From the IMG/VR virus record IMGVR_UViG_2706794698_000016: a stretch of 6,073 bases of DNA; one strand, given 5' to 3'. The position numbers and the translations under genes were made by a program. Positions 2,534 through 2,773 of the stretch are shown here, piece by piece (within the stretch, counting starts at the first letter, position 1; each line of letters begins with the position of its first letter). The notes beneath the pieces are model-generated. The model did no database searches. It was not told the origin of the DNA and saw only the letters and a list, made by a program, of their open reading frames with translations. This DNA is from a virus. Its lineage: Duplodnaviria > Heunggongvirae > Uroviricota > Caudoviricetes.

Positions 2534-2773
2534 GGCTTCCACCACCAGCACGACAAGATGCCGCATACAGTGCCCCAGTCAGTCCAGTTTTCAGACAACC
2601 AGTGCGTCACCTTTTTGAAGGCGCTTTAAAGCACGTTTTAATCCAGGTCGGCCTGTCCTTGTTCCGCTTAATTTATCTTCAAATATTTGTTCATATCCTG
2701 CACAAACAAGAGCGTTTCGTTGCAGGTCTNNNNNNNNNNNNNNNNNNNNNNNNNNNNNNNNNNNNNNNNNNNN
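2534..2773 (-). pseudogene. pin: Pin/Gin/Hin-family serine DNA invertase, N-terminal remnant (about 85 codons); start lies in masked 2730-2788
   Basis: Minus-strand translation of 2728-2534 is DLQRNALVCAGYEQIFEDKLSGTRTGRPGLKRALKRLQKGDALVV*KLD*LGHCMRHLVVLVVEA. This matches the e14 Pin N-terminus as I recall it (...DLQRNALVCAGCEQIFEDKLSGTRTDRPGLKRALKRLQKGDTLVVWKLDRLGRSMKHLISLVGEL...). In-frame TGA at 2591-2593 (Trp position) and at 2579-2581 (Arg position). Start coordinate 2773 is extrapolated. Confidence 0.8.

Follow-up and report, generated by a model that had tools for sequence, protein, structure and literature searches.

The window, which is the 6,073-nucleotide stretch of DNA that was analysed, very probably carries the decayed 5′ part of a Gin-type serine invertase gene that was fused after codon 78, by one old, non-homologous and in-frame joint, to a lambdoid tfa gene. 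The cassette and its scar would since have moved among lambdoid prophages, the tail-fibre segment of relatives would be flipped in trans, and the window's own system is most likely inert. Established, in our view, are the homology, the in-frame stops, the junction and how widely it is distributed, the series of alleles and, in relatives, site-specific inversion.

Frame translation of the minus strand over 2540–2729 yields residues 16–78 of a Din-family serine invertase. The whole remnant, codons 1–78 of a Gin/Pin-type gene, spans 2540–2773 on the minus strand, with codons 16–78 visible (2540–2728) and codons 1–15 masked and taken from orthologues only. Pfam Resolvase (PF00239) matches the 65 visible residues with an E-value of 1e-11 over profile positions 19–86 of 145, identifying the N-terminal resolvase-type catalytic domain, though about half of that domain is left. 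When searched against the window with tblastn, Gin (E=2.6e-31) and PinE (E=4.5e-26) both match the remnant stretch only. The match to a Pin/Gin/Hin-type invertase proposed in the initial annotation is therefore real, over ~78 codons rather than the ~85 residues given there. Across visible residues 16–78, identity is 52/63 (82.5%) to Gin of SfMu, 44/63 (69.8%) to PinE of e14 and 41/63 (65.1%) to Cin of P1. All three values lie above 50%, the line below which membership of the family was to be given up, and the closest kin is Mu Gin and not, as the label Pin-like had implied, e14 PinE. The best solved structure for the remnant, queried with its stops repaired and its N-terminus supplied from orthologues, is likewise Mu Gin (PDB 4m6f; E=1.9e-41), residues 1–79 aligning with residues 1–79. 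The homology stops at codon 78, and an uninterrupted ORF of ~180–200 aa with an E-helix and a C-terminal helix-turn-helix domain is absent. By tblastn, neither C-terminal invertase coding sequence nor a second invertase-like coding sequence is present anywhere in the visible window, in agreement with the earlier statements that the DNA-binding C-terminal half is gone and that the sole invertase of the window, given its stops and truncation, is non-functional. As judged from its sequence, the gene product cannot work, being interrupted by stops and deprived of both the E-helix and the DNA-binding domain.

Base-by-base comparison reveals that the remnant is itself a mosaic, Gin-like over coding nucleotides 1–190 and PinE-like over nucleotides 191–232. 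The first part is 96–97% identical to SfMu gin and to intact E. coli pin and 70% identical to pinE, and the second is 86% identical to pinE, including a 27-nt perfect run, and 52% identical to gin. A search for an intact invertase built as this Gin/PinE mosaic yielded only further copies of the fusion, in Rac.

The remnant runs in frame into tfa at a joint (2538–2545, minus strand) where base-by-base comparison puts the crossover at 2541/2542 and the parents share ~3 bases (GGA), which gives a precise location to the abrupt switch noticed earlier around 2536–2545. Because no intact ancestor with the same mosaic was found, the crossover base is fixed no tighter than ~4 nt. Across the joint the minus strand of the window reads ...GTGCTGGTGG-TGGAAGCCTAG; in the same region intact tfa reads ...CATTGCTGGAAGCCTGG and e14 pinE reads ...GTGCTGGTGGAGGAGTTG. 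In loci where an intact tfa of 190–194 aa adjoins the same methyltransferase and is followed by a full tail fibre gene, lom and J, the match to the window ends at 2541. There is no IS end at the junction. A site-specific origin of the junction was considered and rejected, as no gix-type site was found at or near 2541. The proposal that the breakpoint arose by illegitimate recombination is consistent with a non-homologous joint of ~3 shared bases that lacks such a site, and the comparisons support a non-homologous joining event that is old and not specific to the window's genome.

On the other side of the joint, the minus strand of 2447–2541 is the 3′ remnant of a lambdoid tfa gene, comprising its last ~28–30 codons (a count that includes a mutated Trp codon and a shared Glu-Ala) and a TAA stop at 2447–2449. 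Cultured lambdoid phages have tfa 3′ ends that are 98.7% identical to it, and the intact 194-aa tfa adjoining the same methyltransferase ends in the identical sequence; an intact 194-aa tfa occupies the same position in loci L004–6 and L012. A full-length Caudo_TAP protein (PF02413, ~175–195 aa) is not encoded at the remnant, where only the last ~28 codons are left. The fusion partner had been recognised correctly as the tfa 3′ end in copy B of a direct repeat, its length being slightly underestimated at 27 codons. The two direct repeats, 1348–1495 (copy A) and 2398–2544 (copy B), are ~90% identical, and each consists of a tfa 3′ end and a strong hairpin.

Three stop codons interrupt the fused frame on the minus strand. 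The two in-frame TGA codons lie exactly where the initial annotation placed them, at 2591–2593 and 2579–2581. The former replaces Trp61, which is TGG in Gin, PinE and Cin, and is absent from less decayed alleles. The latter replaces Arg65 (CGA; Gin numbering) and is present in every junction-bearing allele among the ~40 loci examined, and is therefore the oldest point lesion. The third stop, a TAG at 2531–2533, replaces a tfa Trp codon that is TGG in intact tfa and in less decayed alleles. Translation of the ~40 loci arranges the alleles by their decay, from a group that carries the Arg65 stop only, with Trp61, Cys27 and the tfa Trp intact, through an intermediate allele (L047), to the window's group, which combines Cys27Tyr with all three stops. 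On these translations, the alleles appear to descend from one founding event and to have decayed neutrally, step by step.

The scar is widespread. Of 5426 complete E. coli genomes, 511 contain the region 2393–2729, with the joint in it, at ~99% identity, and the exact junction 26-mer is found in 30 IMG/VR prophage contigs; the junction also occurs in S. sonnei-type loci, ST131, E. coli NCTC86 and Rac-type prophages. The 26-mer has no match among GTDB species representatives, where E. coli and Shigella presumably have few representatives. No cultured phage record spans the joint: lambdoid phages match its tfa side only (98.7%), and Mu its gin side only (95.9%). PGAP/RefSeq annotates the joint as a recombinase family protein without a C-terminus and a tail fiber assembly protein without an N-terminus. 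The pin::tfa scar is thus already annotated in hundreds of genomes and is no new kind of element. That the breakpoint records a recombination or deletion holds as far as the event goes, the event being not a local one, since the old junction is common to 511 genomes.

Two downstream contexts follow the joint. In the usual one, as in the window, the tfa end is followed by a hairpin and the methyltransferase; in Rac, a tfaR-type end is followed by an intact, convergent pinR. The homology common to both contexts stops inside the last ~10 tfa codons, and the cassette probably spread by homologous recombination via conserved tfa 3′ ends. The Rac prophages L018 (3576–4581) and L061 (3094–4098) carry the one-stop pin::tfa allele, an invertible-module remnant and, directly next, the convergent intact pinR. 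A Shigella-type contig (L008, 2392–7051) contains duplicated and rearranged tfa and tail-fibre pieces by the dead pin, with tfa copies in both orientations, an arrangement that suggests further recombination within the module.

These comparisons bear on three other explanations of the locus. Sequencing or assembly errors could in principle have produced the stops in what is really an intact invertase gene, and part of the gene is indeed masked in the window. This is next to impossible, however, as the two TGA codons, the TAG codon and the junction recur in hundreds of independently finished genomes, and codon 78 is followed by tfa sequence with no C-terminal invertase sequence in the window. 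The earlier reading of the locus as a pseudogene is borne out. A recent deletion or rearrangement of this Shigella-type genome, for example an IS-mediated one involving an intact pin and a nearby tfa, might be suspected from the richness of the window in insertion sequences (IS1 at 1–103, IS600 from 5969) and from its other rearrangements. It is extremely unlikely, given that not one base of the junction differs in E. coli NCTC86, ST131, Rac-type prophages and IMG/VR contigs and that no IS end lies at it.

The Pin-Tfa hybrid, or its first 60–64 residues, might alternatively be made directly or by read-through as a functional small protein, for example as a dominant-negative subunit or a regulator. 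In its favour, the reading frame continues across the joint, the one-stop alleles have a 64-aa 'recombinase family protein' in the PGAP annotation, and the 5′ 190 nt are still 96–97% identical to gin. Even so, an in-frame joint has a one-in-three chance of arising, and the 5′ conservation is equally explained by a cis-acting enhancer or by young age. The stops build up stepwise across alleles, as for neutral decay, with the Arg65 stop in all those seen, and the fragment is without the E-helix and DNA-binding domain that define the active enzyme, so that we consider a functional product very unlikely. A single old joint followed by decay of the hybrid frame therefore remains our reading of the locus.

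The 5′ end of the invertase remnant falls in a mask, and its content was read from close relatives. The window is identical over 2393–2729 to S. sonnei-type loci (L021–23) and differs by 2 bases from E. coli NCTC86. In the orthologues, the next 44 bases encode GTG-LIGYVRVSTNDQNT, including the catalytic Ser9, with the start at window-equivalent 2773. Judging from orthologues identical over 2393–2729, the GTG start and Ser9 (RVST motif) should lie in the window's masked 2730–2788. The orthologues also carry a 26-bp crossover site, TTCTCGTAAACCGAGGTTTTAGATAA, centred 67 nt upstream of the invertase start, and in the Mu record gin and the boundary of the G segment are likewise 67 nt apart. Elsewhere in the window, the runs of N at 259–452, 729–942 and 5443–5702 are 194, 214 and 260 long, as against 416, 242 and 184 nt in relatives identical on both flanks. 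The runs are not length-preserving, so mask lengths are unusable for frames or distances and ORFs that cross masks (457..975, 2850..3743) are not reliable.

Relatives with the same dead gene still show a working switch. In two ST131-type loci (L019 and L020) the flanks are 100% identical and a 3.1-kb segment is inverted exactly at 26-bp sites, and the differing inner half-sites, TTCCTG and TTCTCG, have swapped partners. The crossover sites in relatives are of the gix type, TTCYYGTAAACCGAGGTTTTAGATAA. Where complete E. coli genomes have the dead gene followed by the methyltransferase, the segment lies in one orientation in 239 of them and in the other in 143. The orientation in isolate 4/0 is opposite to that in isolates 4/1-1 and 4/4, a close kinship of these isolates being suggested by names and accessions only. 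RecA-dependent recombination between inverted repeats could also produce orientation differences, the remnant and the sites then being inert everywhere, and some modules, such as that of NCTC86, do carry inverted repeats of ~620 bp inside the segment. The ST131 block, however, ends exactly in the 26-bp sites, whose inner half-sites changed partners, and no long homology was found between the inner ends of the segment, which argues against a RecA-type inversion; we give this alternative a very small probability.

The genome of Ecol_276, which has the dead locus, also contains an intact Gin-like gene of 199 aa in a P2-like prophage, with near-identical crossover sites. Din-family invertases are known to act on one another's segments, and PinQ and PinR invert the P segment of e14 from another prophage (PMC12529663). 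Given the inversion in relatives, the intact Gin-like gene elsewhere and this known action across prophages, the best reading is that the switch in relatives has survived the loss of its own recombinase gene and is operated in trans. Co-occurrence in one genome suggests that an intact Gin-like gene may be the enzyme acting in trans. The earlier question of an intact pin/gin copy that could act in trans is thus answered for relatives, through the 199-aa gene of at least one genome, and the answer does not extend to the window's own genome.

The remnant may contribute to this switch as DNA. In the P1 record, the Cin enhancer is annotated at coding nucleotides 19–90, equivalent to 2684–2755 of the window, of which 2684–2729 are visible and 2730–2755 masked. 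Three Fis sites lie inside the gin coding region (PMC3378877), and the hin enhancer is 99 bp from hix (PMC3798978). The orthologue and Mu gin differ at 1 position in their first 120 nt. The DNA of the remnant thus appears to hold still the region of the Gin/Cin Fis-dependent enhancer, and its use as an enhancer is plausible by analogy. A further idea, possible but doubtful, is that the 5′ stump persists in hundreds of genomes as a cis-acting Fis enhancer and not by chance. An orphan lambdoid tail-fibre switch, that of ST131 included, would then depend wholly on borrowed invertases, and the scar would mark, as a portable boundary, the right-hand end of a Mu-type host-range cassette that lambdoid phages exchange via conserved tfa 3′ ends.

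In the window itself, remains of the Mu-type invertible tail-fibre module occupy 3726–5968 and comprise an Sv′ fragment (plus strand), a tfa gene at 4513–5046 (plus strand), an opposing tfa (minus strand) and an opposing Sv (minus strand) interrupted by IS600 at 5969. The visible window has no 26-bp crossover site with 7 or fewer mismatches, and the proximal site would fall in a mask. In the nearest relatives (L021–23), IS600 cuts the opposing tail-fibre gene at the 5969-equivalent and only the proximal site remains; both crossover sites are retained in E. coli relatives and in those of the S. sonnei 53G type. The system in the window's lineage is most likely locked and inert, given that the nearest relatives lost the distal site to IS600 and that the visible window shows no site.

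The order of events, like the use of an enhancer and the enzyme acting in trans, is what we infer from these comparisons. The ancestral layout would have been that of Mu and e14, with a constant fibre part, a crossover site, Sv-U-U′-Sv′, a second crossover site, a 67-nt spacer and the invertase gene, the last sitting just outside the invertible tail-fibre segment. A single old non-homologous joint would then have cut the gene after codon 78 and fused it in frame to the last ~28 codons of the tfa gene of a lambdoid prophage, so that the oligomerisation helix and the DNA-binding domain were lost. Next would have come the Arg65→TGA change in the hybrid, to which the window's lineage would have added Cys27Tyr, Trp61→TGA and Trp→TAG in the tfa part. 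Cassette and scar would subsequently have moved among lambdoid prophages by homologous recombination, with the tfa 3′ end probably serving as one arm. Where relatives keep both sites, the invertases of other prophages could still flip the segment, as the remnant DNA with its enhancer region lies beside a gix-type site.

The closest known system in sequence is Gin and the G segment of Mu (also SfMu and D108), with 96–97% identity over nucleotides 1–190 and 52/63 identical residues. As in Mu, the invertase reads away from the segment, the crossover-site centre lies 67 nt upstream of the start and the sites are of the gix type. In contrast to Mu, the remnant is truncated after codon 78, contains stops, is fused to a lambdoid tfa end and resides in lambdoid prophage remnants (J-lom-stf context in relatives) and not in a Mu genome. 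PinE and the P segment of e14 in E. coli K-12 share with it the Din family, stf/tfa pairs in an invertible segment by an invertase gene, and the 86% identity, with its 27-nt perfect run, over nucleotides 191–232; only 44/63 residues are identical, however, the e14 crossover sites differ and PinE is intact. Cin and the C segment of P1 belong to the same family and offer the enhancer at cin coding nucleotides 19–90, equivalent to 2684–2755, but only 41/63 residues are identical, and cin reads towards its segment, with cixL overlapping its 3′ end.

A defective Shigella pin gene was reportedly described by Tominaga et al. in 1991 (J Bacteriol). The locus further resembles those that are served in trans, namely e14 by PinQ/PinR, the Salmonella H segment by Fin and the defective S. 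flexneri pinF, in the principle that a Din enzyme of another prophage can flip an invertible segment (PMC12529663). It differs from them in that the local gene is truncated and fused, not merely redundant, and in that the trans enzyme is here inferred from genome comparison. Lambdoid tfa genes (Caudo_TAP, lambda gpK/Tfa type) beside cargo genes provide the likeness for the other half, the remnant being 98.7% identical to the tfa ends of cultured phages, although it keeps the last ~28 codons only and has a TAG for a Trp codon. The pseudogene matters little in itself, having been spotted correctly and been annotated already by RefSeq in hundreds of genomes. The scar and its stepwise decay are of more use as a marker of a Mu-type invertible host-range cassette that was captured by, and passed among, lambdoid prophages. 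In agreement with the action of PinQ/PinR on e14, a switch can outlive its own recombinase gene when related enzymes of other prophages run it. A dead neighbouring invertase gene alone should thus not lead annotators to call an invertible segment inactive.

An IS1 end at 1–103 lies inside an ompW remnant and IS600 begins at 5969 (5969–6073); together with the trpA-side context in relatives, the IS1/ompW and IS600 contexts place the window in the prophage remnant at ompW of an S. sonnei-type genome. A class I SAM-dependent methyltransferase gene (1724–2392, plus strand) lies between the two repeats of tfa 3′ end and hairpin and resembles a cargo cassette with a tfa end on either side. Between it and the convergent tfa remnant is a GC-rich stem-loop at 2399–2433 (-28.5 kcal/mol, z = -4.3), which a strict terminator scan did not call. 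A 45-aa ORF (2337–2474, minus strand) extends from the methyltransferase 3′ end across the hairpin into the tfa remnant; it corresponds to the RefSeq hypothetical protein WP_001309429.1 and is probably spurious.

Next to the masked 5′ end of the remnant, 2789–3474 is a 686-nt ipaHe block made up of 61 nt of upstream sequence and the first 625 nt of this T3SS effector gene, and it is 99.9–100% identical to EIEC and Shigella copies. The block is bounded by the masks 2730–2788 and 3475–3725, so that both of its junctions are masked. In the nearest relatives, S. sonnei-type loci otherwise identical to all unmasked parts of the window, the flanks of the block match at 100%, 2729 and 3726 are only 248 nt apart and the ipaHe block is missing. 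Among the retrieved ipaHe loci, the gene was never found beside the pin remnant, all having the order methyltransferase, hairpin, 214 nt and ipaHe, and a gapped pattern search of IMG/VR returned nothing in which pin′ is joined to the ipaHe upstream sequence. The ipaHe insertion of EIEC and Shigella relatives lies directly after the hairpin (window-equivalent 2432). Within the tail-fibre module, the C-terminal fibre frame at 3749–4360 stops at a TAG within 4358–4363 and resumes as a 48-aa ORF at 4364–4510. The same TAG split occurs in Shigella relatives, and this alternative fibre end looks decayed.
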